Assembly: GCA_030151825.1 (NCBI GenBank)
Contig: JASLCP010000025.1
Span: 1 to 35,404 of the forward strand
Source: Candidatus Saccharimonadales bacterium
Lineage (GTDB): Bacteria > Patescibacteriota > Saccharimonadia > Saccharimonadales > Saccharimonadaceae
Length of the DNA: 35,404 nt
Direction: 5' to 3'
This document shows, in pieces, positions 3,087 through 32,185 of this stretch (positions are counted from its first letter, which is position 1; each line of letters opens with the position of its first letter). The notes under the pieces were generated by a model, which saw only the letters and a list, made by a program, of their open reading frames with translations, was not told the origin of the DNA and made no database searches. Both the position numbers and the translations under genes were made by a program.

Positions 3087-4301
3087 CTACAAGCTAGTCG
3101 GGAGCTTGACACTCAGATTACGAAAGCCGTCGTCTGTTACCAAAATATCATCTTCGATACGCACACCGATATGCTCTTCGGGGATATATATTCCCGGCTC
3201 GACCGTCAGTACCATGCCCGGCTGCAAACACGATGGCCGCCCCAATGAGTCATGGACATCCGCACCAAGTCCGTGACTAATTGCGTGGGGGAAATAGGTA
3301 CGATACATTTCGTCGCTCTCGTCGCGCAGCAGCCCAAGTCGTATCAAGGCCTGTTTCATAATGACATCAACCTGACGCTGATAGTCATCGACTGCGAGGC
3401 CCGGGGCGATCAGTTCGATAATTTCCCGTTGTGCCGCCGCAACCTCAGCATGGACAGCCTGCTGCCGCTTGGTCATTTTGCCAAGCCCATACGTGCGCGT
3501 AATATCCGCCGCATACCCATGCATTTTTGCACCGATGTCGATCAGTAGCAGCGTGCCCTTTTTGAGCGGACCGTTATTGGCCGTATAGTGCAGTGTACAG
3601 GCATTGTGCCCTGCCGCTACAATCGGATCATAGGCATGCCCCGCTGCTCCACGACTGCGAAAATAGTGCGAAAAATCGGCTTCGACCTGGTATTCATATT
3701 TATACGACGATAGTCGCGATTTGACTTGTTCAAATGCTGCCGTCGTCAGATCAATCGCCGTTTGCATTGCCTCAATTTCTTCGGGACGCTTAATAGCGCG
3801 AATTTCGGCCAATTTGGGGCGAAAATCTTGCACCTTCGTAAAGTGTCGCGACAATTGCTCGCGCATATCACGCGCCGCCGGATTAACCACAAAGCCGAAG
3901 TGATCGTGGTGTGCTGGCGGATCGATTGTATACACCAGCTGATGTGCCCGGGCGGCCTGACGCAGTAATTCCAGGCCTTTCGCACGGTCAAGCACTTCAT
4001 CAACACCACTGATTTCCCGCGCCTCATCCAGAGACAAACTTCCATCAAATAGCGCATGCACAGCGTCAACCTTTGGCGCCACCAACCACGACCTAGCTCG
4101 TTTACCATCAATCACCAACCACCAGTCAGGATGTTCGACTCCGGTCAAATACCAGAAATTTGCCTCTTGCTCGAACGGCGCCGCCATATCATGACTGCGT
4201 TGCATTTGCGTATAGGCCGACACGACCAACAAGCTCCCCTGGAGTTTTTGCATCACCGCCTGTCGATTAGCGGCAAAGAAGGTCGCGTCGAGTGATTTCA
4301 T
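3087..4301 (-). CDS. Xaa-Pro aminopeptidase / M24 family metallopeptidase
   Basis: 404 aa. Pita-bread fold metal ligand motifs are present: LLLIDIGAKMHGYAADITRT, HGLGADVHD, VLTVEPGIYIPEE, GVRIEDDILVT. Confidence 0.85.
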   Translation of the reverse strand: MKSLDATFFAANRQAVMQKLQGSLLVVSAYTQMQRSHDMAAPFEQEANFWYLTGVEHPDWWLVIDGKRARSWLVAPKVDAVHALFDGSLSLDEAREISGVDEVLDRAKGLELLRQAARAHQLVYTIDPPAHHDHFGFVVNPAARDMREQLSRHFTKVQDFRPKLAEIRAIKRPEEIEAMQTAIDLTTAAFEQVKSRLSSYKYEYQVEADFSHYFRSRGAAGHAYDPIVAAGHNACTLHYTANNGPLKKGTLLLIDIGAKMHGYAADITRTYGLGKMTKRQQAVHAEVAAAQREIIELIAPGLAVDDYQRQVDVIMKQALIRLGLLRDESDEMYRTYFPHAISHGLGADVHDSLGRPSCLQPGMVLTVEPGIYIPEEHIGVRIEDDILVTDDGFRNLSVKLPTSL

Positions 4302-5883: not shown

Positions 5884-5909
5884 ACTTCTATGATATCACT
5901 TTACCGGTG

Positions 5910-7163
5910 TTATTGCTGATCAGGACGCACGATCTTGATGCATTCAGGTACTGTCGTTTCGCCGGTCGAAAAGGCAGTTTCAACACAAGTGCGAAACAAG
6001 TTTTGTCGCTGGCGACGCTGCGCAATATCTGCAACCACGGTTGTATTCAGCGCATGGATAAACGCGCGCGGTTCTTGGCCAGGGCTACTGTGACCTATAT
6101 TAGGCAAATGGTGCACATCAAACTTGATATCAGGATAATTGGTCACTTTTCGAAATTGTTGTTCAGCATCATCTTCGTTAACGACTGTGTCGGTCGCTGC
6201 ATCTTTTGGTCGAAAATACGAAATTCTAACATCGCCAAATTTACGTAATTTTGCAATCGCTCCACGTGCCGTTGCCCCCAACTGCACACAAAATTGATCG
6301 TACAGGACGTTCGCCGTCGCTGATGGATGACGAATTTTTTTCTCATACACATCGTTGCTTGTTTCGATCAGCTTGCCGATATCCAACCTATGCTCGTCCG
6401 TATTCATATAGGAGTCTTTGCGTCCCAACATCTCGGGAATGTATCGCGATAACCAGTAATATTTGAGCCACGGTGCATATTCGGCATAATTACAGACATT
6501 TTGGCCAAATGAACGCATATTGCTTCGCACCGAATCTATCGAAAATGGCGTTTGCAAAAGCACGATGTCGCGCAATTTTATATCGAGATTTTTTTCTTCA
6601 ATAATTTCTTTGGCGCGGGCTGCCTTGTTGAGCATTTTTAGCCCGCCGATACTGTGACCGATCAGCACGATTTCTTGGACATTATGATCTACCGCATATT
6701 CGACTAACTTTTCAGCTTGTTCATCAGTATTGATACCTTTGTCCGATTCCCTATCGGCAACCGTTCGCCCCTGATACCTTAAGGGTGATAGCGCGGTCAT
6801 CATATTTGTCGCATCCATGTTGCCAAAGCCGACGGCACCGTCAAACAGCAAATCATTATTCGAGGGATCTTTTGCTTCGTTAATCTCGAGGATGCTACTT
6901 GGTCGACCTGACCACTGCTGGTACGTTTCGGCAATACCGAGTGCTTCGTGGCTGGCAATAGCAAGAGTCGCCGAAAGACACACAAAAGCTCTCCGTCCCA
7001 GGTAGCGGCGCTTCTTTTCAGACACTTCTTTCGTTTGATCGCGACTATCAAGACGATCATTGCTAGAGATGACGCCTACCTCATGCTCGAGATCCTGTAA
7101 AAGCTGTTCTATATTACTTTCAGAATCCCCAGACAGCTGCTTGTTCTGTCTTTCGGCCTTCAT
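5910..7163 (-). CDS. Alpha/beta-hydrolase-fold protein (putative membrane-anchored esterase/lipase), function unknown
   Basis: 417 aa. Acidic N-terminal region, then one hydrophobic segment (AFVCLSATLAIASHEALG). GxSxG nucleophile elbow (VLIGHSIGG). Candidate Asp (DTVVNEDD) and His (NIGHSSPG) are late in the sequence. Confidence 0.5.
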   Translation of the reverse strand: MKAERQNKQLSGDSESNIEQLLQDLEHEVGVISSNDRLDSRDQTKEVSEKKRRYLGRRAFVCLSATLAIASHEALGIAETYQQWSGRPSSILEINEAKDPSNNDLLFDGAVGFGNMDATNMMTALSPLRYQGRTVADRESDKGINTDEQAEKLVEYAVDHNVQEIVLIGHSIGGLKMLNKAARAKEIIEEKNLDIKLRDIVLLQTPFSIDSVRSNMRSFGQNVCNYAEYAPWLKYYWLSRYIPEMLGRKDSYMNTDEHRLDIGKLIETSNDVYEKKIRHPSATANVLYDQFCVQLGATARGAIAKLRKFGDVRISYFRPKDAATDTVVNEDDAEQQFRKVTNYPDIKFDVHHLPNIGHSSPGQEPRAFIHALNTTVVADIAQRRQRQNLFRTCVETAFSTGETTVPECIKIVRPDQQ

Positions 7164-7230: not shown

Positions 7231-7959
7231 TTATGCAACAGCAACGCCAAAGAGGTGGCCAATTCCATACGTCACTACTGCCGAGAAGACAATGATAAGA
7301 AACTGGCGGATCGCGCCGAAAACAATCGGCTTACCGCTGGTATTTGCCGTATATGCACCGACAAATAGGCCGGCAAATCCAGTCAACGCCGAAGCGATAA
7401 CTGCACCAGTCATGCCGTCTGCGCCAAAGAACCAGGGTGCCAGTGGCACCAAGGCTCCGGCAGTAAACAACAAGAAAGACGATATCGCAGCTACCCACGG
7501 TGATCCAAGCTCGTCTTCGTTAATACCAATAACCTGTGACGAGTACATGGACACAAACAGATTATCCTTTTCGGCGACATCTTTGGCTGCGTGAGTTGCT
7601 GTTTTTGCATCAATACCGTGCTCTTCGAAATTTTTCGCAAGATTGTTGACCAAGGTTTTACTATCTTTTTTGACCGCGAGTTTAAGATCAGTCAGTACAC
7701 CTTCGAACAGCTCGACTTGCGCTTTGACCGAAATCCACTCGCCTGCGGCCATCGAAATAGCACCCGCTAGTAGTCCCGCGAGTCCAGCAACGAGCACCGA
7801 ATGGCTAGCCGCACCAGTTGCTGCGACACCAACCACAATACAAAGCGTACTCACCAGACCATCGTTAACCCCAAGAACAGCAGCCCGCGCGCCACCTCGT
7901 TGCACCTGAGCTGCACGAGCAGCCAAGATTTGGCTTGTTGTTTGTTTCTCTTTATTCAT
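7231..7959 (-). CDS. VIT1/CCC1-family iron/manganese transporter
   Basis: 242 aa. Contains the VIT-family signature GVNDGLVSTLCIVVGVA. The central cytosolic segment is flanked by TM helices. Confidence 0.8.
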   Translation of the reverse strand: MNKEKQTTSQILAARAAQVQRGGARAAVLGVNDGLVSTLCIVVGVAATGAASHSVLVAGLAGLLAGAISMAAGEWISVKAQVELFEGVLTDLKLAVKKDSKTLVNNLAKNFEEHGIDAKTATHAAKDVAEKDNLFVSMYSSQVIGINEDELGSPWVAAISSFLLFTAGALVPLAPWFFGADGMTGAVIASALTGFAGLFVGAYTANTSGKPIVFGAIRQFLIIVFSAVVTYGIGHLFGVAVA

Positions 7960-14608: not shown

Positions 14609-15139
14609 ATGCTCGCTATGGCAACCATCTACACGATTGGACATTCTACTCATACCATTGACGAATTTATCAGTATTCTCAATACGTACGGCATCAAACA
14701 ACTCGTCGACGTCCGGTCGGTTCCGGGGTCACGCCACAACCCACAATTTGGCCAGAAAGCGCTCGAATCATCACTCGAAAAGCACGACATTGCCTATAGC
14801 TATATGAAAAAATTAGGCGGATGGCGCAACGGGCCAAAAAGCGAACAAAATGCCGCATGGCGCAACGCCTCGTTTCGGTCGTATGCCGATTATATGCAGA
14901 CAGATGATTTTGCCGACGGCATCGATAAACTTACGACACTTGCCAAAAAAGCACCGACTGCTATCATGTGCGCCGAAGCGGTGCCGTGGCGATGCCATCG
15001 TTCGCTGGTTGGCGATGCGTTAACCGTACGTGGCCACGATGTTCTCGACATCATGAGCAAAACGAATAGCTCCAAACATACCCTCACTTCGTTTGCTCGC
15101 GTCGACGGATTAGCGATTACCTATCCGGCGTCCGAGTAA
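14609..15139 (+). CDS. DUF488 domain-containing protein
   Basis: 176 aa. IYTIGHSTHTIDEFISIL...VDVRSVPGSRHNPQF and CAEAVPWRCHRSLV are the conserved DUF488 blocks. Only a 2-nt gap separates it from the upstream gene. Confidence 0.75.
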   Translation: MLAMATIYTIGHSTHTIDEFISILNTYGIKQLVDVRSVPGSRHNPQFGQKALESSLEKHDIAYSYMKKLGGWRNGPKSEQNAAWRNASFRSYADYMQTDDFADGIDKLTTLAKKAPTAIMCAEAVPWRCHRSLVGDALTVRGHDVLDIMSKTNSSKHTLTSFARVDGLAITYPASE

Positions 15140-15761
15140 GCTGTTTACCGAGCTGTACTTTGTCGACGTTGGCGCCAAATACCGGTCCGCCTGGTTCCAA
15201 TAGGCACCCTTTGGCGAGTCTGCCGATTGGCAGCGGGTCAAAGCCTAATCGGTCGATAATTGTCGCAACCGTTACGACATCTTCTTCATTATCGCCTGCT
15301 ATGGCAATCGCTTTTCGACCGGACGCGCCTGCCGGTCGTGGCTCGTCATGCAAGTCATGATAGCCCATATGGTTCAGTGCCTTTACCACACGGGCGCCGG
15401 CCAAAAAGCTCTGCATCGCTTCGCTCGACGACACATCCGGATCGATAATTTCATCACGCAGTCCATCAACTTCCCACCAATGATTCGTCGCATCAATCAC
15501 TAGCTTGCCGTCGAGTGCTTTTTGCGGCAATTCTTTGTATTTTCCGAGCGGCAAGGCGAGGAGCACCACATCGCTGCTTCGCACCACCTCCTCACTCGTC
15601 ATCACCTTGGCACCTGGCGCCAACACCTGCATACTCAGCGCAATCTTGTCAGGCGAACCCGACCCAGCAATCGCTACCTCGTAGCCTGCTTTTAGCGCCA
15701 GCTGTGCCACCACCACGCTCAACTTTCCCGCACCAATAATGCCGATTGTTTCTCCCTTCAT
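15117..15761 (-). CDS. NAD(P)-binding oxidoreductase, F420-dependent-NADP-reductase-like (Npd/PF03807 type)
   Basis: 214 aa. N-terminal Rossmann motif IGIIGAGKLSVVVAQLALKAGYEV. Its 3' end overlaps DUF488 by 23 nt in convergent orientation. Confidence 0.7.
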   Translation of the reverse strand: MKGETIGIIGAGKLSVVVAQLALKAGYEVAIAGSGSPDKIALSMQVLAPGAKVMTSEEVVRSSDVVLLALPLGKYKELPQKALDGKLVIDATNHWWEVDGLRDEIIDPDVSSSEAMQSFLAGARVVKALNHMGYHDLHDEPRPAGASGRKAIAIAGDNEEDVVTVATIIDRLGFDPLPIGRLAKGCLLEPGGPVFGANVDKVQLGKQLTRTPDR

Positions 15762-15762
15762 A

Positions 15763-16812
15763 TTATTTCTCGTCGAGTAATTTGCGGACGCGTGGAATCA
15801 CTTCTTTTCCGTATAGTTCAATCATGTGACGACGCGCCTCGGCCGGAACATCACCAAAACCATACACCATATCAAAGCGTGTCGCACCAACGACCTTCAT
15901 TGCCTTTACAATCTTTGTTGCCACCGTTTCGGGCGAACCAACGTACAGTGATCCATGCTCGACTTCGTGCATAAACTGCTGACGCGTCATCGGCTGCCAA
16001 CCGCGCGTACGACCAATTCGATCCATCTGCCGTTTAAATAACGGAAATGCCGTTTTGATGGCTTCTTCGTCGGTATCGGCAATAAAGCCTGGCGAGTGCA
16101 TACCGACCGGGTGCGGCTCATGACCAAATTCTTTGCTAGCACGTTTGTACAGGTCGACATATGGCGCAAAACGGTCGGGTGATCCGCCAATAATTGCCAA
16201 CATCAACGGAAAGTCATACGACGCAGCACGCACCACCGATTGCGGCGAACCACCCACGCCAACCAATGTTTCAAGTTTGCCAGATTCGGTTTTTGGAAAA
16301 ACATCTGCCTTATCCAGCGACTGTGTATGCGTTCCTTCCCATGTGACCGGTTCTTCTTTTAGCAGCTTACTAAAGAGCTCGATTTTCTCTTCGAATAGCG
16401 TTTCGTAATCGCGCAAATCATAGCCGAAAAGCGGGAACGATTCGGTAAACGATCCACGCCCCAAAATGACCTGGGCACGGCCGTTTGACACTGCATCAAG
16501 CGTCGAAAATCGCTCGAATACGCGCACAGGGTCATCGCTACTCAGCACTGTTACACCCGACGCTAGTTTGATATGTTTTGTCTTACTGGCGATTGCCGCC
16601 AGTACCATTTCAGGACTTGAAATCGCATACTCATCGCGATGATGTTCGCCAAGCGCAATCGCATCGATGCCGAGGTTATCAGCTAACACTGCCTCGTCAA
16701 TCACCAAACGAATCGCCTCGGCATAGTTCGTCGTTTCACCATCGTTTTTTTGGGCCAAATCACCGAACGAATCAAGCCCAAATGTATATGTTTTCATTAC
16801 TTCTTTTGTCAT
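15763..16812 (-). CDS. LLM-class (luciferase-like) flavin-dependent oxidoreductase
   Basis: 349 aa. Contains LGIDAIALGEHH, with TIM-barrel LLM pattern throughout. A 1-nt gap separates it from the downstream reductase gene. Confidence 0.8.
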   Translation of the reverse strand: MTKEVMKTYTFGLDSFGDLAQKNDGETTNYAEAIRLVIDEAVLADNLGIDAIALGEHHRDEYAISSPEMVLAAIASKTKHIKLASGVTVLSSDDPVRVFERFSTLDAVSNGRAQVILGRGSFTESFPLFGYDLRDYETLFEEKIELFSKLLKEEPVTWEGTHTQSLDKADVFPKTESGKLETLVGVGGSPQSVVRAASYDFPLMLAIIGGSPDRFAPYVDLYKRASKEFGHEPHPVGMHSPGFIADTDEEAIKTAFPLFKRQMDRIGRTRGWQPMTRQQFMHEVEHGSLYVGSPETVATKIVKAMKVVGATRFDMVYGFGDVPAEARRHMIELYGKEVIPRVRKLLDEK

Positions 16813-23809: not shown

Positions 23810-24721
23810 CTACACAGCCGCCCTGAGTTTCGCTTCGTGCTTTTGCCGGCACTCGTCGGTATGAAACAACAAATCAGGGTTTTGCTTGCAGTGCAAACAA
23901 ATCAACACCAAATCATTACATTCCATGTGGGCGCAGTTTTCAAAATTATTCGTCGGACCGCCACAGTGCGTACATTCACCAATCGTCTTGGCATGGTCGC
24001 TAAAATCGATCGTCATGCGGTTATCGAATACACGAAGGGAACCTTCCCATAGACCATCGTCGCCGTATGCCTCGCCATACTTGACGATGCCACCATCGAT
24101 TTGATAGACATCTTTAAATCCGCGTTTTTTCATCATGGCGCTAATAGCTTCGCAGCGAATACCGCCCGTGCAATAGGTGATAATTTTTTTGTCTTTGATA
24201 TCATCGTACTTGTCGCTTTCCAGTTCGGCAATAAAGTCGCGCGAGGTATTGGTGTTTGGTACGACGGCATTTTTGAATTTACCAATTTTGGCTTCGTGGG
24301 CGTTGCGGCCGTCAAAAAACACCACATCGTCGCCATATTTTTCGATAAGCTCGTGGACTTCGCGTGGTTTTAGATGCTTGCCACCACCAACAACTCCACT
24401 TTCGTCCACCTCGATTTCGTCATCACTATTTTGAAAGCCTACCAGTTCGCGGCGTACCTTCACGCTCATGCGTGGAAAATCTTCACGGCCACCGTCACTC
24501 CACTTAAATACCGTATTTTTAAACCCAGAGAACTTTTTTGTCTCGCGAATATACGTCTTAAGGTCATCCATCTCGCCGCCAACCGTCCCATTCAGCCCCT
24601 GTTCACTCACCAAGATTCGCCCTTTCAGATTCAGGCTATCAGTCAGTGTCTTTTGCCACAATTTTATCGTTTCCGGGTCCTTGATGGGCGTAAACTTATA
24701 ATAGAGGAGAATTCTTTGCAT
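23810..24721 (-). CDS. trhO: Rhodanese-domain tRNA uridine(34) hydroxylase (UPF0176/YceA, TrhO)
   Basis: 303 aa. N-terminus ILLYYKF...GRILVSEQGLNGTVGG, rhodanese active-site loop YCTGGIRCE, and the C-terminal Cys-rich tail typical of TrhO. Confidence 0.85.
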   Translation of the reverse strand: MQRILLYYKFTPIKDPETIKLWQKTLTDSLNLKGRILVSEQGLNGTVGGEMDDLKTYIRETKKFSGFKNTVFKWSDGGREDFPRMSVKVRRELVGFQNSDDEIEVDESGVVGGGKHLKPREVHELIEKYGDDVVFFDGRNAHEAKIGKFKNAVVPNTNTSRDFIAELESDKYDDIKDKKIITYCTGGIRCEAISAMMKKRGFKDVYQIDGGIVKYGEAYGDDGLWEGSLRVFDNRMTIDFSDHAKTIGECTHCGGPTNNFENCAHMECNDLVLICLHCKQNPDLLFHTDECRQKHEAKLRAAV

Positions 24722-24729
24722 ATATTCCC

Positions 24730-24758
24730 ATTATAGCACATTTGGCCTCTGTTGTCAC
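24730..24758 (-). promoter_or_regulatory. Sigma70-type promoter of trhO (probable leaderless transcript)
   Basis: On the minus strand: GTGACA (24753-24758), a 17-nt spacer, then TGCTATAAT (24730-24738). The -10 box ends 8 nt before ATG 24721. No Shine-Dalgarno. Confidence 0.55.
24733..24742 (+). repeat. Left copy of the 10-bp direct repeat ATAGCACATT flanking the GT2 cassette
   Basis: Identical 10-mer at 24733-24742 and 27039-27048. The left copy overlaps the trhO -10 box. The right copy lies 1 nt after the cassette terminator. Confidence 0.45.
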
Positions 24759-24822
24759 GGGGCAGCTTGAGAGCTTTTGTCAAGATAGAGTCATTCTAGT
24801 ATCATTTTCTTAAAAAATAATA

Positions 24823-24851
24823 TTGCTTTTTTAACATAAATATTGTATAAT
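24823..24851 (+). promoter_or_regulatory. Candidate promoter of the GT2 cassette
   Basis: TTGCTT (24823-24828), a 17-nt spacer, then TATAAT (24846-24851) in a very AT-rich stretch. This implies a 5' UTR of about 85-90 nt before ATG 24943. Confidence 0.5.
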
Positions 24852-24905
24852 CAAGCAGCTGCCTTTACACCTCTCACCAGAGTGCTCAAAGACAAGTACG
24901 TTAAC

Positions 24906-24917
24906 AAGTAGTTACTC
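24906..24917 (+). repeat. Left arm of a perfect 12-bp inverted repeat (AAGTAGTTACTC) in the GT2 5' UTR
   Basis: Its reverse complement, GAGTAACTACTT, occurs at 26280-26291. Each arm is itself a near-palindrome (AGTA-nn-TACT). The arm lies 25 nt upstream of the GT2 ATG. Confidence 0.6.
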
Positions 24918-24942
24918 CAAACAAACTTTCGAAAGGACGTTC

Positions 24943-26019
24943 ATGACTACTGTCGTAGCGCTGATTCCAGCGTACAACGAAGCAGAGAGCATCGAGGAGA
25001 CAATCAAAACACTCCTTGCTCAGAGCCGTCAACCTGATTTGATCGTTGTCATCCCCAACGGATGCACCGACAAAACGGCAGACATTGCCCATCGATACAG
25101 CTCTCGGTCGCTTGTCGTCCATGAACTGCCTCGATTGGAGCACAAAAAGCCCGAGGCACTCAACATCGCGTGGCATACCTATGCCAGAATCGCTGATATT
25201 GTCGTCTGTCTCGACGCCGACACGACACTTCCGCCCAATGCGGTCGCTGACTGGATCCAAGAGTTCGATACACGACCGAATCTCGGTGGCTCGAGTTCGA
25301 AGTTCACGATGCGTGGTGAAGACTTTTGGACGCGATTGCAGCGCTCTGAATTCGCCAAGTGGACAGACACGGCACTGCGTCGCAAGCACACCACTGTACT
25401 TGCCGGTACCGCTTGCGCCATTCGTGGCGAGGCACTGCGTGCAGTTAGTCAGCTCCCAAACCGACAAGGTCCGTGGTCGTACAATTCACAAGTCGAGGAC
25501 TTCGAAGTCACCTATCAGATTCGAAGACTCGGCTACGTCTGCCACGTCTCACCGACCGTCCGCGCTTACACCGACTCCATGAAGAGCCTTCAGGCACTGT
25601 GGGGTCAGCGTATGAAATGGCAGGTCGGCACCATCGAAGACCTCCTTAGTCTCGGTGTCAACCGACTGACGTTCATCGATTGGTGGCAGCAAACCGTCGG
25701 AATATTCATGGCACTCATGCGAGTACTGTGGTTATTCCTACTCGTGTTTGCAGCTGGCGCTCACCTGCTACATTTCAGCTGGCTGTGGTGGATTGCTCTC
25801 CCAGCAACCTTCGCACTATTTGAAGGTCTGATGAGCCTGCGCATCCCTCATCGTAACAAGTGGGATATCGTGTATGGATTTGCCATCGTCCCGTCCGAGA
25901 TATTCGCGATGGTACGATCGGCATGGTTCTTGACCGCATGGGCGCAAGTCCTGTGGTCAAAGATGACTGGCTCCCGCAAGGACTACTGGTCACTGCAATA
26001 CAAAGCAGAATCGCACTAG
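24943..26019 (+). CDS. Processive family-2 glycosyltransferase (D,D,D,QxxRW type; PgaC/IcaA/cellulose-chitin-synthase-like) with a C-terminal TM bundle
   Basis: 358 aa. ALIPAYNEAESI..., NGCTD, DADT, VEDFEVT (ED catalytic-base context), and GQRMKWQVG (QxxRW), followed by 3-4 TM helices. There is no N-terminal TM helix. Codon usage differs from the neighbours: hand counts give TTC about 11 vs TTT about 4 and CTC about 11, whereas the first 180 codons of the ABC gene give TTT about 10, TTC 1 and CTC 0. Confidence 0.85.
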   Translation: MTTVVALIPAYNEAESIEETIKTLLAQSRQPDLIVVIPNGCTDKTADIAHRYSSRSLVVHELPRLEHKKPEALNIAWHTYARIADIVVCLDADTTLPPNAVADWIQEFDTRPNLGGSSSKFTMRGEDFWTRLQRSEFAKWTDTALRRKHTTVLAGTACAIRGEALRAVSQLPNRQGPWSYNSQVEDFEVTYQIRRLGYVCHVSPTVRAYTDSMKSLQALWGQRMKWQVGTIEDLLSLGVNRLTFIDWWQQTVGIFMALMRVLWLFLLVFAAGAHLLHFSWLWWIALPATFALFEGLMSLRIPHRNKWDIVYGFAIVPSEIFAMVRSAWFLTAWAQVLWSKMTGSRKDYWSLQYKAESH

Positions 26020-26049
26020 GCGGACTCTGCCCTAAGAAAGGAATACACC

Positions 26050-26217
26050 ATGTACGGTGTAGGTGTTGGTACAGGTATCACTGGCGGCAGTTTCTTAGCT
26101 GTCGGCATGGTGAGCGGCTGGTATATCTTGGCGATTATCGCCGCGATCTGTCTGCTCGCCGGTGGCGGGATTCTCGTGTACAACGCGACCCATCGCCAGG
26201 CCCATCAGCGGCCGTGA
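26050..26217 (+). CDS. Small hydrophobic protein (55 aa), unannotated, possible accessory subunit of the GT2 synthase
   Basis: ATG 26050 lies 7-8 nt after AAAGGA and 30 nt after the GT2 stop. Translation: MYGVGVGTGITGGSFLAVGMVSGWYILAIIAAICLLAGGGILVYNATHRQAHQRP, ending at TGA 26215-26217. Gly-rich N-terminus, about 30 hydrophobic residues, basic tail. It shares the ATC/CTC-rich codon style of the flanking genes. It is below the 60-aa cutoff of the ORF track. Confidence 0.5.
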   Translation: MYGVGVGTGITGGSFLAVGMVSGWYILAIIAAICLLAGGGILVYNATHRQAHQRP

Positions 26218-26225
26218 CACCAGGG

Positions 26226-26267
26226 GCCGGAGAGTAGCGATGCATTTTTTGCAAGCCACTCTCCGGC
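26226..26267 (+). promoter_or_regulatory. GC-rich intercistronic stem-loop without a U-tract
   Basis: 10-bp perfect stem GCCGGAGAGT (26226-26235) / ACTCTCCGGC (26258-26267) with a 22-nt loop that has additional internal pairing. No T-run follows on either strand. Confidence 0.5.
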
Positions 26268-26279
26268 TCACCTGTTCCC

Positions 26280-26291
26280 GAGTAACTACTT
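26280..26291 (+). repeat. Right arm of the 12-bp inverted repeat (GAGTAACTACTT) upstream of the sortase-like gene
   Basis: Perfect reverse complement of 24906-24917. It lies 34 nt upstream of ATG 26326, just after the 26226-26267 hairpin. Confidence 0.6.
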
Positions 26292-26325
26292 AATCCAAGA
26301 CCCCTACTATTTGCAGAAGGTTGTT

Positions 26326-26964
26326 ATGCGCAAGAGAAAGATCACTCCGTGGATCGTAGTAGGTATCGTTCTATCGATACTGGCTGCGGTGTATTACTGG
26401 GGGCGGTCAACTCAACCCGCCCAACCAACGCGAGATCAAACCGCAGCAAGCCAGGCAATCGACACGCTCGATCACCTCCCGAAGAGCACTTCGGTTGCTG
26501 CGTCAGACATCGTTCGCCTGCAAGTACCGGCTGTGTCGATTGATGCAGGAAGTACGGGTGTTACATGGCCGCGACACACTCGTCGATGCCATGCTTCGAC
26601 AGTATGTATCGACCCACCAGAATCAACCAAAGTTGCGTGGTATGGTGCGTATGCGCTCCCCTCGTTTCCGAATCATGGTTCTGTGCTAGTGTACGGACAC
26701 TCCAACCCCAATAGTAATGTTCGGCAAGTTTTCAACGATTTGCCGGCAGTCCATCAGGGTGATACCGTCATCGTCACGACCAAGACCGGCGTCTTTTACT
26801 ATCGAACGTCTATCGTCACAGGTATTCCGTTCGAAGAAGTCGCAACGTCTACGCTGATTTATGGTACGGCCAAAAACCGTATCGCACTCATCAGCTGCGA
26901 TCTCCGCAACTCGACTGACGCTGTTGTTGTCATCGCCGATTTGGTCACGGCAACCCCGCGCTAA
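26326..26964 (+). CDS. Sortase-family transpeptidase-like protein (class F-like), membrane anchored
   Basis: The ORF starts at TTG 26311, but ATG 26326 (MRKRKITPW...) lies 5 nt after GAAGG. N-terminal TM anchor, then the ordered blocks of a sortase fold: LQVPAVSIDAG, VAWYG, VLVYGHS (His), QGDTVIVTTKTGVFYYR, IALISCDLR (Cys then Arg), VVVIADL. No LPXTG substrate gene is visible in the window. Confidence 0.55.
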   Translation: MRKRKITPWIVVGIVLSILAAVYYWGRSTQPAQPTRDQTAASQAIDTLDHLPKSTSVAASDIVRLQVPAVSIDAGSTGVTWPRHTRRCHASTVCIDPPESTKVAWYGAYALPSFPNHGSVLVYGHSNPNSNVRQVFNDLPAVHQGDTVIVTTKTGVFYYRTSIVTGIPFEEVATSTLIYGTAKNRIALISCDLRNSTDAVVVIADLVTATPR

Positions 26965-27001
26965 TTCGTAGCGCACACCGCGAACGGCGGCTCCGTTCAC
27001 C

Positions 27002-27037
27002 AGCCCATCTTGGCTTTATAGCAAGATGGGCTTTTTC
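27002..27037 (+). terminator. Rho-independent terminator closing the GT2-peptide-sortase cassette
   Basis: 11-bp perfect stem AGCCCATCTTG (27002-27012) / CAAGATGGGCT (27022-27032) with a 9-nt loop, followed by TTTTTC. Confidence 0.8.
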
Positions 27038-27038
27038 A

Positions 27039-27048
27039 ATAGCACATT
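27039..27048 (+). repeat. Right copy of the 10-bp direct repeat ATAGCACATT
   Basis: See the left copy. The two copies bracket 2.3 kb containing only the three compositionally atypical genes and their terminator. Confidence 0.45.
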
Positions 27049-27186: not shown

Positions 27187-28935
27187 TTGAATAATAGCAA
27201 AATAACGCTGCACCTGTACTGGCAGCAAATCCGCAAATACAAAATCAGCTTTTTTGTGATGCTGATTGCGATTCCGGCCGGTGCATTATTTATCGACACA
27301 CTGCTGCCCTACTTTTTTAGCCAAGCAATTGGCGGTTTGACCGGCAAGAATAGCGATATCGTCACCCAAAGTCTGATCGCAGCGGCTGCCGTCGGTCTGG
27401 TTGGTGCAGTCTGTAACGTCATCGGATTTCAAACAATGATTCGTCACGAGGCCAACGTACGCCGAGCGCTGAGCGATGAAACGTTTAAAACAATTATCAA
27501 CAAAGACTTGACGTTTTTCGTCAACCAAAAAGTTGGCGCACTGACCAGTCGCTATATCGACTTTATTCGTGCTGCGACGTCACTGCAGGATTTGCTGATT
27601 ATCCGTACTTTAGGTTTTGTGATTTCGGTCGGCGTTGGCCTAGTGATTGTCGCCAGTCATTCGCTAGTCGTCGCTGGGATTATCATAGTGCTAATCATAT
27701 TACTTGTCGTGCAAATCAAATGGAGTCTCAAAAAACGTGCGCCACTTCGCAAAGAGCGAAAAGATTTGATTGGTGAAATTCACGGTGCCGTAGCCGACGC
27801 GATTACCAATAATTTGATCGTCAAAACCTTTGCTCGCGAACACGACGAAACAGCCACCCTTTCCAAAAAGCAACGACGGTTTCGTGATGTCTATACGCGC
27901 GATTTTAGCCTGATGGCGATCGAAGGTTCGGCACGCGTGTTTATTATGACGACGGTGCAAATTATCGCGATTGCGTGTTGTGCATACTTGGCGATGCATG
28001 GCCAAATGGATGTGGCGATGGCGATTTTTATCTTGACGTATCTACAGCGTATTGCCTCGCAGCTCTTTACGCTAGGTGACATGTTGAACGGCTATGATCA
28101 ACTATTTCTTGACGCTGCGCCAATGAGCGAAATGCTGAATAGCGAGATTACTGTCATCGATAAACCGCACGCCCACACCCTCGACACTACATCGCCGGCA
28201 ATTATATTTGACGACGCATCATATCATTATAGCGATAGCGACAAAAATGTGATTTCGAACATCAATCTGACGATTCCGGCTAGCCAAAAAGTCGGTTTAG
28301 TTGGTCATTCGGGTGCCGGCAAAACGACCATTACTCACCTATTACTGCGTTTTGCTGACGTGACTGGCGGTGCGATTACCATCGATGGCCACGACATTCG
28401 CGACATCACCCAAGAAAGCTTGCGCCGTCACATTGCCTATGTGCCGCAAGAGCCTCTGCTATTTCACCGCAATCTACGCGACAATATTGCCTATGGCAAA
28501 CCCGACGCAACCGATGACGAAATCCGCAAGGCTGCTCGTCAAGCCAACGCACTTGATTTTATCGAACAACTACCGGAAGGGCTAGATACAAAAGTAGGTG
28601 AGCGCGGCGTCAAACTAAGCGGTGGACAACGTCAGCGTATTGCCATCGCTCGGGCAATCCTCAAAGATGCACCGATTTTGGTGCTAGACGAAGCGACCTC
28701 GGCACTTGATTCGGAAAGCGAAAAGCTCATCCAAGATTCGCTCGACAAACTCATGAAAAACCGCACCAGCATTGTTATCGCCCATCGCCTATCGACAATC
28801 GCCAAGCTTGACCGTATTATCGTTCTTGATAAAGGTTCAGTCATCGAAGACGGTAATCACAATACACTCCTCAAACAAAAGGGCATCTACGCCAAACTGT
28901 GGTCGCATCAGTCCGGTGGCTTTATCGAAGACTAA
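27187..28935 (+). CDS. ABC transporter, fused permease/ATP-binding exporter (MsbA/type-I exporter-like)
   Basis: 582 aa. TTG start 7 nt after AAGGAG. Six-TM N-terminal domain. Walker A GHSGAGKTT, signature LSGGQRQRIAIARA, Walker B ILVLDEATSALD. Codon usage is like the bulk of the window. Confidence 0.9.
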   Translation: MNNSKITLHLYWQQIRKYKISFFVMLIAIPAGALFIDTLLPYFFSQAIGGLTGKNSDIVTQSLIAAAAVGLVGAVCNVIGFQTMIRHEANVRRALSDETFKTIINKDLTFFVNQKVGALTSRYIDFIRAATSLQDLLIIRTLGFVISVGVGLVIVASHSLVVAGIIIVLIILLVVQIKWSLKKRAPLRKERKDLIGEIHGAVADAITNNLIVKTFAREHDETATLSKKQRRFRDVYTRDFSLMAIEGSARVFIMTTVQIIAIACCAYLAMHGQMDVAMAIFILTYLQRIASQLFTLGDMLNGYDQLFLDAAPMSEMLNSEITVIDKPHAHTLDTTSPAIIFDDASYHYSDSDKNVISNINLTIPASQKVGLVGHSGAGKTTITHLLLRFADVTGGAITIDGHDIRDITQESLRRHIAYVPQEPLLFHRNLRDNIAYGKPDATDDEIRKAARQANALDFIEQLPEGLDTKVGERGVKLSGGQRQRIAIARAILKDAPILVLDEATSALDSESEKLIQDSLDKLMKNRTSIVIAHRLSTIAKLDRIIVLDKGSVIEDGNHNTLLKQKGIYAKLWSHQSGGFIED

Positions 28936-29012: not shown

Positions 29013-29073
29013 GATTTTCTCCAGATAAATACCTAGAGAAAAGTGCATGCACCTACGAGAATGGAGTGGGGCT

Positions 29074-29436
29074 ATGAAGGCGAAGAACGAAGTTGCAATG
29101 ATCACTGTACGCACGGCACAGCGCATTGCGACCACCATGGATACCGTCGAGGCCCTAGGCGCTGCAGACATCTTCGATCTCATCGATATGCTGAGGGGCG
29201 ATGTTCCAGGTATGTCCGATCTCACCATCTGGCAAGCACTTGGTTACGGCGTTACCCATCGGATGTTCAGCATCATTTCGCACAACGACAATACTGACGA
29301 GGTCATGCTGACATGCATCGACCGCACTGTCGAAGTTGTTGTTGTCGAAGAGCGTATGCTGCGCGACAGCGATGACATGTTCCGTCATCTGATGCGTGGG
29401 TCAAACCACGTACGCGACTACATTGCCGCACTCTAA
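29074..29436 (+). CDS. Hypothetical acidic 120-aa protein
   Basis: ORF 29047..29436. ATG 29074 (MKAKNEVAMITV...) is preceded by GGAGTGGGG. No recognisable motif. Its codon style (TTC, CTC, ATC, GAC) resembles the GT2 cassette rather than the flanking ABC and helicase genes. An intrinsic terminator follows. Confidence 0.5.
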   Translation: MKAKNEVAMITVRTAQRIATTMDTVEALGAADIFDLIDMLRGDVPGMSDLTIWQALGYGVTHRMFSIISHNDNTDEVMLTCIDRTVEVVVVEERMLRDSDDMFRHLMRGSNHVRDYIAAL

Positions 29437-29448
29437 CCCGTCCGACTC

Positions 29449-29494
29449 GCCGGAGCTAGTACAGATAGTTTTATCTGGAACGCTCCGGCTTTTT
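29449..29494 (+). terminator. Rho-independent terminator after the orphan 120-aa gene
   Basis: Outer stem GCCGGAGC (29449-29456) / GCTCCGGC (29482-29489), inner stem CAGATA/TATCTG, then TTTTT (29490-29494). There is no T-run on the minus strand, so it does not serve the convergent helicase gene. Confidence 0.7.
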
Positions 29495-29506
29495 ACTTGC
29501 CAGAGG

Positions 29507-32185
29507 CTATTTTGTTACTCGACGCGAACGACGTGTCGTACGATTACCGCGATTTGAACAAGCAACAGCCTCGTGTAGCGGCTTACGATGTGTCTGGCCT
29601 TTATCCATCCAGACATGTACCGAACGGTCACCTAATTGATCAGTGATACCATAGTCACTCAGTTCTTTAATACGATGTACCGGCACATCAATAAAGGCTT
29701 CGTTATTGCGATATCGCACACCGACTTCAACTAGTTCGTCACCCATCGATACGACAATCGAATCCGGCGACTGGTCCATAATTTTCTGCGTGTCAGCACT
29801 CTCAAGTCCGTACGATAATTTCAGCCCTTCATACATGCCGCGACGATACATCACTTCGGCAAGACTATGCATATCCATTACTTTTACGTCTTTCATGGTC
29901 GATACACTTTGCCTGAGTGTTTCGACAAATACGTCAAACTCATCAGCACGACTAGAGCGGTCAACTAAGAGTTCCTTGATGCGCTGCAACTCAGAAAAAA
30001 TAGCGTGGACCTTGTCCGACGATTCAGGTGGCAACGCCTCAGCGCCAAGCATAGCTTCAAGCACTACTTTCGTTGTCTCAACACTCGGCTCCGCCTGTAC
30101 TACTGTACCTGTTGCATGGCCATCAAAATACAGATCGCGTCCAGCAATCATTGTATTGCCGTACCCGCACAAATTGCTAACACGACCTTCGCCGTAGGTG
30201 CAGCGCCACGGTGCGTGTTCTACCAACTGTTCGGGTGTGACAATCGTCGCGTTTGTTATCACCGAGTGTGTCTTTTTGACGCCGTTACGATAATGCTCGA
30301 TACCCAGTCCCGAGCCAATAACTAGCTGGGCGCTATGCGAGATACTTGACGACTTTGCTAAACGACCGCTAAATGACGCGCCGTCTGTATATGCCGGCCC
30401 ATAATTCACAAACAATTTATCAGCACCGGCAATCATACAGGCAATCAATTTTTGACGCTCATTCTCAGTCGGGATGCGAATATCACCAATAGAATAATCT
30501 CGATCATGCGTGAGTCGCTCAAATAGACGTTTGGCTTTTACAAGACGGCGGTCGATAATATCGAATTGCTTTAAATCGACTGGCGTCATTGACAACGCCT
30601 GCACCAAGACATCAAGTTGCACTAACATATCAGAACGATTTTCTTTGGAGAGTGTTCGCCACCGCTCACAGCCTTGTTCGTTACGCGTAATACCTTCTTG
30701 CTGCGTGGCAGCAACCAGTGCAGCCATTTGCATCTCGACCGCACGGCCGTGTTTTTGCGATTCGATAAACATGCGAGCGTAGGTCGGGTCAAGTGGCAAA
30801 CGCGCCATCTCCTCGCCAATGCGTGTAGCTTCAAATGAGTTTAATACTTGTGCACCCAGCCGCACTAACTTGTGATGAGCATACTCTAGCTCGTTGGCGC
30901 GCGGCATATCCTGCAGATCAAGTTGATCCAACCTCAGTCCCGTCCGACCTAGGCGCAATACAAACGGCGCCAAATCAGTCCGCAAAATCGGTGGTTTGTC
31001 ATGACTATCCAGCAGTGGCTCGCCTGCCTCATTACGGGGAACGGGCGGATAATTTTCGAGGAGCGCTTGCGCATATATCCCCGGTTTCGTGCGCCCAACA
31101 CGGCCACTTCCCTGAATGACATTCGCCTTTGAAACCGGATGGACACGCAGGTAACGAATACCCTGCACATAATCACCCGATCGGGCATACATCGGATCAA
31201 CAACAACATCAAGATCAGGAACGGTGATACTTTGACGTAGTACATCGGTTGCTACAATGATTTTGCCGCCCGGATACGATTCCATCGCCCTGCGTTGCTC
31301 TTCGATTGATTGTTCGGCGTGTAATGGCAAAATCGTATAGTCTTTTGGCACGCGGTTGGTAATGCGACCAATCGTATCGCCGATTTCTCGCTTACCCGGT
31401 ACAATAGCTGCAATATTCATTGGTTCTTTTGAATCGAGGTTGGCATACGAGATAATCTGCTCTTCGGTAAGCCCACCAACTTTTCGTTCGACAGGATGCA
31501 TCACACCCGGCAAATCGAGTACTGGTACTGACCGGCCATCGAGTGCCTGCGAACAATACTGTGCCCATTTATCCGTATCCATCGAAGCGCTCTGAATCAC
31601 CAAGCGCAGTCCCTTTTTGAGCGCAACGCCGATCGCAATATCAATATTTGGATTACGTTCGTGGGCCTCATCAATAATCAGCACATCGTCACGTGTGATG
31701 ACCTCATCCTGGGCCAGCAATTGCTGCAATAAATATCCGTCCGTATGCTCACGAATAACATGAGTGCCACGAACAGCATCGCCCTCAACTGCCGTACGAT
31801 AAGCAATCACGTCGCTCATATCGCGGCCAGCCGCCTCGCTCATTTGCTGCAACGTAAAACGCTCGTTTTCACGAGTCGCAGCCACGCGCGGCTGCGTTTG
31901 AATAATGTGGCGATAGCGGCCGGTCTCGTACAGATATTGCACAACTGAAATACTCTTGCCATTGCCTGTACCTGAGGCAAGCACGGTGACCGGGTTGGTG
32001 TTAACGGTGTCGACAATTAAATCGCGGTACTTGGCGATCGGGTAGTCAGGGTTTCCAAAGACATAGTCATCCGTCTGCGGAGGTAAGGTGATTGTTTCAC
32101 CTGTTTTCGGGTCGACCCATTGTTGATCAGGCCATGTTTTTGGGGCACGGTCGTTCTGCTCTTGGTATGCAAGCACCTCTGTCAT
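29507..32185 (-). CDS. DEAH/RHA-box ATP-dependent helicase (HrpA/HrpB-like) with an uncharacterised C-terminal region
   Basis: 892 aa. Motif I SGTGNGKS, II IIDEAHERN, III QSAS, V TDVLRQSITVPD, VI QGSGRVGRTKPG. HA2/ratchet-like PPILRTDLAPFVLRL and LPLDPTYARMFIES. I could not assign the last roughly 300 aa. Confidence 0.85.
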   Translation of the reverse strand: MTEVLAYQEQNDRAPKTWPDQQWVDPKTGETITLPPQTDDYVFGNPDYPIAKYRDLIVDTVNTNPVTVLASGTGNGKSISVVQYLYETGRYRHIIQTQPRVAATRENERFTLQQMSEAAGRDMSDVIAYRTAVEGDAVRGTHVIREHTDGYLLQQLLAQDEVITRDDVLIIDEAHERNPNIDIAIGVALKKGLRLVIQSASMDTDKWAQYCSQALDGRSVPVLDLPGVMHPVERKVGGLTEEQIISYANLDSKEPMNIAAIVPGKREIGDTIGRITNRVPKDYTILPLHAEQSIEEQRRAMESYPGGKIIVATDVLRQSITVPDLDVVVDPMYARSGDYVQGIRYLRVHPVSKANVIQGSGRVGRTKPGIYAQALLENYPPVPRNEAGEPLLDSHDKPPILRTDLAPFVLRLGRTGLRLDQLDLQDMPRANELEYAHHKLVRLGAQVLNSFEATRIGEEMARLPLDPTYARMFIESQKHGRAVEMQMAALVAATQQEGITRNEQGCERWRTLSKENRSDMLVQLDVLVQALSMTPVDLKQFDIIDRRLVKAKRLFERLTHDRDYSIGDIRIPTENERQKLIACMIAGADKLFVNYGPAYTDGASFSGRLAKSSSISHSAQLVIGSGLGIEHYRNGVKKTHSVITNATIVTPEQLVEHAPWRCTYGEGRVSNLCGYGNTMIAGRDLYFDGHATGTVVQAEPSVETTKVVLEAMLGAEALPPESSDKVHAIFSELQRIKELLVDRSSRADEFDVFVETLRQSVSTMKDVKVMDMHSLAEVMYRRGMYEGLKLSYGLESADTQKIMDQSPDSIVVSMGDELVEVGVRYRNNEAFIDVPVHRIKELSDYGITDQLGDRSVHVWMDKGQTHRKPLHEAVACSNRGNRTTRRSRRVTK

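Follow-up and report, generated by a model that had tools for sequence, protein, structure and literature searches.

A recurrent glycosyltransferase, mini-peptide and sortase-fold gene module, probably of actinobacterial-type origin, in a Saccharimonadales contig

Introduction

Between trhO and the gene for an MsbA-like ABC exporter in a contig of a Candidatus Saccharimonadales bacterium (NCBI GenBank assembly GCA_030151825.1, contig JASLCP010000025.1; the window, meaning the whole stretch of 35,404 nt analysed here, is positions 1 to 35,404 of the forward strand) stand three genes whose company raises a question: what would a family 2 glycosyltransferase (GT2), a membrane peptide of 55 aa and a protein with a sortase fold do together, and how did they come to be there? 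Synthase-dependent exopolysaccharides and sortase-anchored proteins are usually viewed as separate branches of the Gram-positive envelope, which a module of this kind would join. An earlier note, made from the letters of the DNA alone, had read the block as a compositionally foreign insertion bracketed by two copies of a 10-mer, and had stated that no described locus was known to couple such a synthase to a sortase-fold enzyme; a literature search likewise found no paper on a GT2-peptide-sortase system. The block is shown below to belong to a new and recurrent GT2-peptide(-sortase) module common to Actinomycetota, their phages and Saccharibacteria, and its presence in the window is probably of foreign, actinobacterial-type origin.

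The glycosyltransferase and its small partner

The three co-oriented open reading frames (ORFs) are present in the ORF list exactly where the earlier note had placed them, all on the plus strand between trhO and the ABC exporter gene (Table 1). The first encodes a product that is readily identified, with matches to Glyco_trans_2_3 (69 bits), Glyco_tranf_2_3 (67 bits) and Glycos_transf_2 (61 bits) that are all past the Pfam cut-offs; the best NCBIfam model is PgaC_IcaA (TIGR03937) at 95.2 bits, its cut-off of 422.3 not being reached. The signature residues are D43, D91xD93, E185-D186 and QRMKW at 222-226, of which D91-A-D93, E185-D186 and QRMKW are invariant in 48 GT2 homologues. The earlier description of a D,D,D,QxxRW glycosyltransferase needs qualifying in the last motif, which has K for R: QRMKW lies on the interface helix 216-237 of the AlphaFold2 (AF2) model, where the Lys replaces the Arg of Q(Q/R)xRW. 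The model (pLDDT 94) has an N-terminal GT-A domain followed by ~3-4 C-terminal membrane helices. Its best PDB folds by E-value are the Chlorella virus hyaluronan synthase (1e-15) and Xenopus HAS1, with PcManGT, BcsA and chitin synthases as further matches, and by target-normalised TM-score the best is PcManGT, at 0.68. Searching the PDB by sequence gave only weak matches, with ArnC and DPMS-type polyprenyl-phosphate transferases on top.

The earlier note had taken the tiny second ORF for a partner of the synthase, and the ORF is indeed kept beside homologous GT2 genes. Loci with a GT2 at least 45% identical carry an ORF of 49-66 aa directly 3' of it, and 48 distinct peptides were obtained when duplicates were collapsed. 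In 37 of the 48 the peptide start lies -4 to +5 nt from the GT2 stop, and a search with a profile of the peptides retrieved that of the window at E 4.6e-10. All GT2-linked peptides start with (M)YG and end in [RK]P, and share a tail rich in Gly, Ala, Ser and Thr, a single hydrophobic helix and a basic stretch; in the window these appear as MYG, VGVGTG, a Gly-rich stretch, a single membrane helix and a basic tail ending QRP. As judged from its sequences, the family has the tripartite layout of a sorting signal, almost without a passenger.

It is among the peptides that have no sortase-like gene beside them that this layout is most apparent. In 14 of 19 diverse members of this group (related to each other, as discussed below) the motif [LIVMF][PA]xTG stands directly before the helix, against 0.65 expected by shuffling, examples being LAYTG, LAATG, LAVTG, LPATG and LPVTG. 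Two peptides, from Pseudarthrobacter (18.0) and from phage SilentRX (18.8), are past the cut-off of 15.9 of TIGR01167 (LPXTG_anchor), and many carry the NCBI/JGI name 'LPXTG cell wall anchor domain-containing protein'. The curated model NF058583, 54 aa in length, gives weak full-length matches to actinobacterial peptides, the best at 31 bits with a cut-off of 65. The window peptide has the helix and basic tail of a sorting signal; it has no Pfam or NCBIfam match at E <= 0.01, and its helix is single, where PgaD/IcaD have two. The IcaA/IcaD and PgaC/PgaD likeness suggested in the earlier note therefore extends to the co-conservation of a small membrane protein after a synthase and not to the peptide itself, which is unrelated in sequence and has the architecture of a sorting signal.

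Further features of the peptides can be recorded. The [RK]P-stop ending, at 26206-26217 in the window, is the same in all orthologues, for example L003 (7077-7229) and L095 (3571-3726), and neither it nor the (M)YG start is required by a sorting signal. An RP-stop ending is known from the stalling peptide TnaC. Termination stalling of the TnaC kind was considered for the present peptides and rejected, the stop codons being mixed (26 TGA, 12 TAA and 10 TAG). A sortase partner like SafA (PMC9282373) was also rejected, given that there is no FPW motif and that the peptide follows GT2 even where there is no sortase gene nearby. A PHROGs search with the peptide and the sortase-like protein gave nothing useful. 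An extra ORF of 47-49 aa was found upstream of GT2 in two loci: that of phage TinyMiny (L003, 5855-6004) overlaps the GT2 start and has no family match in PHROGs, and that of the Saccharibacteria locus L001 (5632-5775) lies on the opposite strand and has no precomputed Pfam hit.

The sortase-like enzyme and the motif switch

The third ORF, of 217 aa, passes the Pfam Sortase model (PF04203) at 39.3 bits with a cut-off of 26.6. It fails the class F model NF033748, at 32.4 bits against a cut-off of 166, and none of the sortase class models came near its cut-off for the window protein. The earlier term 'class-F-sortase-like' is thus supported as far as 'sortase-like' goes and not for the class; the canonical catalytic Arg is absent. 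Class F scores in the relatives were also low, with the eight nearest tested below 40 bits and two distant multidomain matches at 93-101, still under the cut-off. ATG 26326, with GAAGG upstream, is the likeliest start, ahead of TTG 26311; it gives a protein that matches P0142, a database protein of 212 aa. The protein has an N-terminal membrane anchor, and His130 and Cys196 in the 217-aa numbering. Although a PDB search by sequence gave only weak hits, the AF2 model (pLDDT 76) matches the folds of sortases E (T. fusca), A and C at E ~2e-8 and a probability of 1.00.

Both the His (in YGHSN) and the Cys (in L[VI][TS]C) are invariant in 11 close relatives, as are two extra Cys in RCHASTVCIDPP. 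Within a wider set of 20 sequences the His is invariant and the Cys kept in 18. Two cluster representatives among the distant members of the family, P0290 and P0305, lack the Cys (LVAYDE, LLTYSE) and are probably inactive. Where canonical sortases have the Arg, the window protein has Ala, reading DAV against DRY/DRI in 4d70/7f87, and the residue is Ala or Gly throughout the family. The sortase-like protein represents a distinct sortase-fold clade, and may act as a transpeptidase. The family is small: a word-index search found 10 proteins, and among 1.84 billion representatives there were 18 clusters at E <= 1e-30 and 129 at E <= 1e-10.

The gene directly follows GT2 and the peptide in seven cassettes, those of the window, L001, L023, L092, L093, L094 and the P0246 locus; a metagenome scan with the sortase profile added just three loci. 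L093 and L094 can be assigned to Actinomycetota because a Pup ligase is present, and L092 has a GC content of 70%. The key observation from this set is that the motif before the helix changes with the company the peptide keeps. In sortase-linked peptides [LIVMF][PA]xTG is absent and YGxx[VI]GTG is present, and most end in QRP. P0246 (MYGAGIGTG...AAHQRP) was chosen on its peptide sequence alone and proved to lie in a GT2-peptide-sortase cassette with a new neighbourhood. The prediction of a motif switch thus held for P0246, and YGxx[VI]GTG is therefore found in 7/7 sortase-linked cassettes.

Deacetylase links and a proposed mechanism

Genes for polysaccharide deacetylases of family CE4 are a recurrent companion of the module. 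A CE4 gene lies upstream of GT2 in L092, L093 and L094, and nearby in Actinoplanes and Solirubrobacteraceae. CE4 is fused to GT2 in a protein of 644 aa in a metagenome-assembled genome (MAG) of Propionibacteriaceae (L009, 5989-7923), and to the sortase-like protein in one of 334 aa (L099/L100, 4449-5453). The window cassette is without CE4. These links, upstream, nearby and as fusions, point to a glycan that contains N-acetylglucosamine (GlcNAc) and is partly de-N-acetylated, as in poly-N-acetylglucosamine (PNAG) systems, and the GT2 product is probably a GlcNAc-containing oligomer or polymer.

The three genes can be tied into one pathway because the peptides are built like sorting signals. 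The block would then be an accessory envelope-glycan module of actinobacterial type, in which GT2 and peptide work as a pair and the glycan is coupled to the envelope, a reading to which we give about an even chance of being right. It builds on the gene identities, folds, co-conservation, motif switch, CE4 links and distribution, and predicts from them the sugar, the topology, the cleavage and the attachment partner. The peptide would serve GT2 as a partner helix, as an acceptor, or as both. In the LAxTG/LPxTG forms, found in most Actinomycetota and in actinophages, the housekeeping sortase of the host would act on the motif; in the YGxx[VI]GTG forms of the window and six further cassettes the dedicated, Arg-less enzyme would cut the motif, cleaving peptides of the MYGVGVGTGITGG type, and move the N-terminal piece. 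Transfer of this piece would couple the glycan to the envelope, either at the wall or at the glucosamine (GlcN) amines of a de-N-acetylated polymer. Two chemistries can be envisaged, between which the present data do not separate: the glycan may be built on the invariant Tyr2-Gly3 tail and moved to the wall by the sortase, or the acyl-enzyme may be resolved by GlcN amines that CE4 has freed. A bolder version is put forward more tentatively. It holds that the peptide is a covalent polysaccharide adaptor, primed or loaded with a GlcNAc glycan by GT2 at Tyr2-Gly3, or else attacked by GlcN amines of the glycan, and anchored to the wall by the housekeeping class E sortase in LAxTG forms or by the dedicated enzyme in YGxx[VI]GTG forms. 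Actinophages would have spread it as a surface-conversion module, and Saccharibacteria would have borrowed it.

Synteny, distribution and origin

Saccharimonadales relatives, in which trhO is 82-87% identical in protein and 73% in DNA, share with the window a backbone of trhO...ABC...L25-VTT-UvrA, and the genes of the window as a whole are in keeping with a chromosome of Saccharimonadales. What lies between trhO and the ABC gene varies: L087-L090 have ORFs of 204 aa and 154 aa there, L097 has an RrnaAD methyltransferase with an ORF of 149 aa, and the P0134 contig has genes for a Zn-ribbon, an MFS transporter and a DUF2127 protein. Because the relatives keep the backbone yet carry other genes here, the content of the trhO-ABC gap is variable, and the cassette counts as accessory. 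The direct trhO-ABC junction that the earlier note had expected in relatives was not found in any of four sets of trhO relatives, the gap being filled by other genes, a search that is not decisive as the collections hold no genome closer than these relatives with 82-87% aa identity. The junction of trhO with GT2 is 100% identical in an independent 1.9-kb assembly from another sample, and the left junction is therefore not a chimera.

The relatives of the GT2 number hundreds at 56-70% identity. In species-representative genomes, nearly all the relatives at 54-64% come from Actinomycetota (Arthrobacter, Pseudarthrobacter, Actinoplanes, Microlunatus, Nakamurella, Isoptericola, Ilumatobacteraceae and unclassified MAGs), and copies from Solirubrobacterales and Acidimicrobiales are 47-53% identical. 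Seven actinophages carry copies at 47-57% identity, namely the Microbacterium phages TinyMiny, Sparcetus, RikSengupta and Ajin, the Arthrobacter phages SilentRX and AWGoat and the Brevibacterium phage Cantare, and the phage copies of the module are placed with early and replication genes. The pair of GT2 and peptide is thus found in many Actinomycetota, in these seven phages and in a few Saccharibacteria, and the neighbourhood of the cassette differs from genome to genome. In a rough neighbour-joining tree of GT2 the three Saccharibacteria copies form a single clade nested among Actinomycetota. Saccharibacteria live on Actinobacteria, and transfer from a host or a phage is therefore plausible. 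As the nearest GT2 relatives are only 64-70% identical, however, either the acquisition was not recent or the donor is unsampled. The horizontal acquisition proposed in the earlier note accordingly stands as regards the accessory position, the actinobacterial-type relatives and the nested clade, and falls as regards the insertion scar considered below.

The evidence from composition is mixed, and suggestive rather than decisive. The cassette has a GC content of 54.2% against 49.0% in the rest of the window, and by tetranucleotides it ranks 1/334 among sliding 2-kb windows (z 3.5); its GC is above that of the flanks in all five low-GC hosts. The synonymous-codon likelihood is no outlier, z being -1.3 when all genes serve as the reference and -1.8 when those of the plus strand do, and GT2 ranks third of 37 by this measure, so that the earlier description of the block as compositionally foreign was borne out for tetranucleotides and GC alone. 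The codon counts in the note were correct: in GT2 the fractions are 0.73 for TTC/Phe, 0.60 for ATC/Ile, 0.29 for CTC/Leu and 0.38 for CGA/Arg, while that of TTC/Phe is 0.20 in trhO and 0.04 in the ABC gene. GC skew is negative over the whole 35 kb, however, third-position C ranges from 0.25 to 0.44 in genes of the plus strand and from 0.10 to 0.30 in those of the minus strand, and the preference for ATC/CTC/TTC is common to several other plus-strand genes. Because third-position C depends on the strand, codon comparisons across opposite strands are confounded. Codon usage is only mildly atypical, in part from strand bias, and was rejected as proof of foreignness.

Promoters, hairpins and the repeat

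The 10-mer ATAGCACATT on which the insertion model was built does have two copies in the window and no more, at 24733 and 27039, and the estimate of 0.05 chance matches was reproduced, shuffling giving 0.050 for a shared 10-mer in spacers of 221/222 nt and 0.086 for the shuffled spacer pair with inverted matches allowed. The left copy, in its minus-strand context TGTGCTATAAT, is the TG-extended -10 of the trhO promoter. The -35 (GTGACA) of this promoter, at 24753-24758, lies within the proposed insert, at a spacing of 17 nt, as a caveat in the earlier note had foreseen. The -10 hexamer ends 8 nt upstream of the trhO ATG, so that the trhO mRNA would be almost leaderless. Cassette-free relatives are alike: in L087 a TGnTATAAT, seen as TGGTATAAT, stands 9 nt upstream of the trhO ATG. 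The overlap with the promoter, the same -10 in relatives and the chance of ~0.05 led to the rejection of a target-site duplication, and the 10-mer is unlikely to be an insertion scar. Insertion at the repeat would need a matching -35 to have been brought by chance, and the repeat is therefore treated as coincidental, which it probably is. No terminal inverted repeats were found at the cassette, and, as the earlier note had stated for integrases, neither integrase nor transposase was found in the window.

The cassette has a promoter region of its own, as had been claimed, in so far as a TTGTCA-17-TATCAT site, a consensus match only, is present upstream of GT2. The strong terminator claimed for the end of the block was also recovered, as a hairpin (27002-27032) followed by five U, a 76-nt stretch folding at -27.4 kcal/mol (z -4.2). 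A second stable hairpin, at 26224-26269, sits directly 3' of the peptide stop codon, between the core pair and the gene of the sortase-like protein, where it may terminate transcription in part or stabilise the transcript. Hairpins after the peptide are also found in L001 (~7302-7348), L092 (~3768-3806) and L093 (~5887-5920). The four cassettes are otherwise unrelated in sequence, and the hairpin of L093 is a canonical terminator with a U-run. The position of a strong hairpin directly after the peptide stop in all four suggests a core transcript of GT2 and peptide, with separate or weaker expression of the sortase gene.

Table 1. Features of the cassette and its borders in the window
Feature	Position	Strand	Basis or remark
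trhO	23810-24721	minus	
trhO promoter, GTGACA-17 nt-TATAAT, TG-extended	24730-24758	minus	promoter scan, 11/12 matches
left 10-mer ATAGCACATT	24733-24742	plus	overlaps trhO extended -10
cassette promoter-like site, TTGTCA-17 nt-TATCAT	24777-24805	plus	10/12 matches; consensus match only
GT2, 358 aa	24943-26019	plus	Pfam, AF2 model
mini anchor peptide (putative), 55 aa	26050-26217	plus	orthologues downstream of GT2
stable hairpin, 12-bp outer stem, no U-run	26224-26269	plus	folding, z -3.3
sortase-fold Cys/His enzyme	26311/26326-26964	plus	Pfam Sortase, AF2 model
intrinsic terminator, 11-bp GC-rich stem then UUUUU	27002-27037	plus	folding
right 10-mer ATAGCACATT	27039-27048	plus	directly past terminator
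MsbA-like ABC exporter	27187-28935		

Weighing the explanations

Several observations weigh against an actinobacterial-type module that couples a glycan to the envelope. The window peptide has no [LIVMF][PA]xTG and no TIGR01167 match, its best sorting-signal score being 13 bits (NF058583). The passenger part of the peptide would be only 8-20 residues, a strange feature in a sortase substrate, and a signal peptide is absent as well. As the peptides are related, the motif counts measure conservation and not independent events. The Arg that canonical sortases need is missing from the sortase-like enzyme, which may not be a transpeptidase, and its gene occurs at three loci with no GT2 detected (L099 and L100, within 5 kb, and L101, on a contig of 3.8 kb). 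A polymer product is not assured, because GT2 has few membrane helices, only ~3-4, and resembles the non-processive PcManGT (6yv7) too. As to origin, the codon usage has no outlier status and the GC excess could partly reflect Gly/Ala-rich membrane proteins. Every mechanistic step is a prediction.

Some of these points would be met if the block encoded a plain synthase of the PgaCD/IcaAD type, the peptide being a structural helix for the GT2 channel and the sortase-like protein merely co-located. The tight translational coupling of GT2 and peptide fits this well, as do a GT2 that is short of membrane helices and could need one more, the rank of PgaC_IcaA as best NCBIfam model, CE4 partners that resemble PgaB/IcaB and a window peptide without a canonical sorting motif. 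It is nevertheless unlikely, and is the weaker explanation because it leaves unexplained both the LAxTG/LPxTG motif, kept at a fixed place before the helix in the sortase-less peptides, and the strict switch of motif beside a dedicated sortase-like gene. That sorting-signal cut-offs are passed, that the sortase-like family is almost confined to the cassette and that the peptide resembles neither PgaD nor IcaD in sequence also speak against it. A different departure, which seems quite improbable, is that GT2 is non-processive and makes no polymer, glycosylating instead a membrane lipid or polyprenyl carrier in the course of envelope remodelling, for example for phage exclusion, with the peptide and sortase as accessories. 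The TM-score of PcManGT, the ArnC and DPMS-type proteins at the top of the PDB sequence matches, the 3-4 membrane helices, QxxKW in place of QxxRW and the position of the phage copies among early and replication genes are all consistent with it; against it stand the processive HAS, BcsA and chitin synthases as top folds by E-value, the invariance of the DxD, ED and Q..KW signature of the synthase group, and the recurrent CE4 partners and fusions, which point to a GlcNAc glycan as substrate.

With regard to origin, the locus might have been long resident in Saccharimonadales and vertically inherited, its oddity arising from its amino-acid content and from strand bias, and relatives without it having lost it. 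The unremarkable codon likelihood, the C3-rich plus-strand genes elsewhere in the window, the single clade of the Saccharibacteria GT2 copies, nearest relatives that are just 64-70% identical and the lack of an integrase or transposase nearby would all agree with this. Its probability is low all the same, in view of the first rank by tetranucleotides, a GC above that of the flanks in every low-GC host, neighbourhoods that change from genome to genome, the four distinct gene sets with which relatives fill the trhO-ABC gap and a family that is overwhelmingly actinobacterial and phage-borne. The opposite extreme, which goes back to the earlier note, is a recent insertion that duplicated its target ATAGCACATT, so that the repeats mark its exact ends. 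Two copies of the 10-mer in 35 kb, one on either side of the block, are what this model would lead one to expect. It is very improbable all the same, as the chance of ~0.05 holds for a single spacer pair with no correction for multiple looks, the left copy forms the trhO extended -10 with the -35 correctly spaced inside the supposed insert, the cassette-free relatives share the -10 architecture, and terminal inverted repeats, an integrase, a transposase and an empty site were not found. The reading retained is that of an accessory module of horizontal origin, acquired long ago or from an unsampled donor.

Neighbouring genes

Two other parts of the window deserve mention. A second variable gap, at 29047-32185 between the ABC gene and L25, contains a 129-aa ORF without a family (GC at third positions 0.62) and a helicase-like protein of 892 aa, and the relatives L087 and L097 have different content there. 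At 15117-16812 an F420-type NADP oxidoreductase adjoins a luciferase-like monooxygenase in a locally GC-richer segment (~53%); the pair has an actinobacterial look and seems unusual in a reduced Saccharibacteria genome.

Comparison with known systems

If the proposed coupling is correct it would be a new way of fixing a glycan to the wall or membrane, and would define a clade of sortase-fold enzymes that do without the canonical Arg. It would also offer a simple experimental system of two or three small genes, carried by Arthrobacter and Microbacterium that can be cultured and by SEA-PHAGES phages, and a candidate function in surface conversion or adhesion that is shared by Actinobacteria, phages and Saccharibacteria epibionts.

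The closest structural matches of the GT2 are class I hyaluronan synthases (HAS), chitin synthases/NodC and BcsA (7sp7, 8smm, 8k3p and 4p00; E 1e-15 to 1e-12), which have the DxD, ED and Q..[RK]W signature in common with it. The window GT2 is much smaller, at 358 aa and ~3-4 helices, with an identity of 12-18%, and the non-processive PcManGT is equally close to it in size. In the Nod system the CE4 enzyme NodB frees an amine on which NodA then places an acyl group, a logic similar to that of an acyl-enzyme resolved by CE4-freed GlcN amines. The PNAG systems PgaCD/PgaB of E. coli, IcaAD/IcaB of staphylococci and MatAB of Streptomyces, the last a synthase-dependent PNAG system (PMC5972031), share with the module a membrane GT2 with a small membrane partner, and CE4 de-N-acetylases in the locus or as fusions. 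Unlike those synthases, the window GT2 has no N-terminal membrane helices, has QRMKW and scores 95 against 422 bits; its partner peptide has a single helix and the architecture of a sorting signal and is unrelated to PgaD/IcaD, and the cassette has a sortase-fold enzyme in addition.

With sortases and their LPXTG/LAXTG sorting signals (classes E and F) the enzyme shares the fold, the Pfam cut-off and the His and Cys, and the actinobacterial peptides share the motif, helix and basic tail and pass TIGR01167. In contrast, the window enzyme fails every class model, is without the Arg and has two extra invariant Cys, while its presumed substrate is a peptide of ~50 aa with almost no passenger or signal peptide and with YGxx[VI]GTG in place of LPXTG. 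The 'LAXTG motif-containing small protein' of NF058583 is similar in size to the peptides, with weak full-length matches, none of which reaches the cut-off of 65; no publication on its function or on a link to GT2 was found.

Precedents for the proposed logic exist. In the LcpA-GspA-SrtA pathway of Actinomyces oris an LCP phosphotransferase adds a glycan to a full-size secreted protein, an LPXTG-type substrate that is then anchored to the wall by the housekeeping sortase (PMC6381275). The logic of a glycan on a sorting substrate, in an actinobacterium, is comparable to that proposed here; the module has a synthase-type GT2 with a mini-peptide, and no LCP enzyme in the cassette. The PEP-CTERM/exosortase system is a sorting-signal system tied genetically to exopolysaccharide loci (PMC1569441), and PorU of the type IX secretion system links cargo to anionic lipopolysaccharide (A-LPS) by a sortase-like transpeptidation onto a glycan-borne amine (PMC7468200). 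The enzymes, signals and envelopes of these two systems are unrelated to those considered here, and the analogy is one of logic only.

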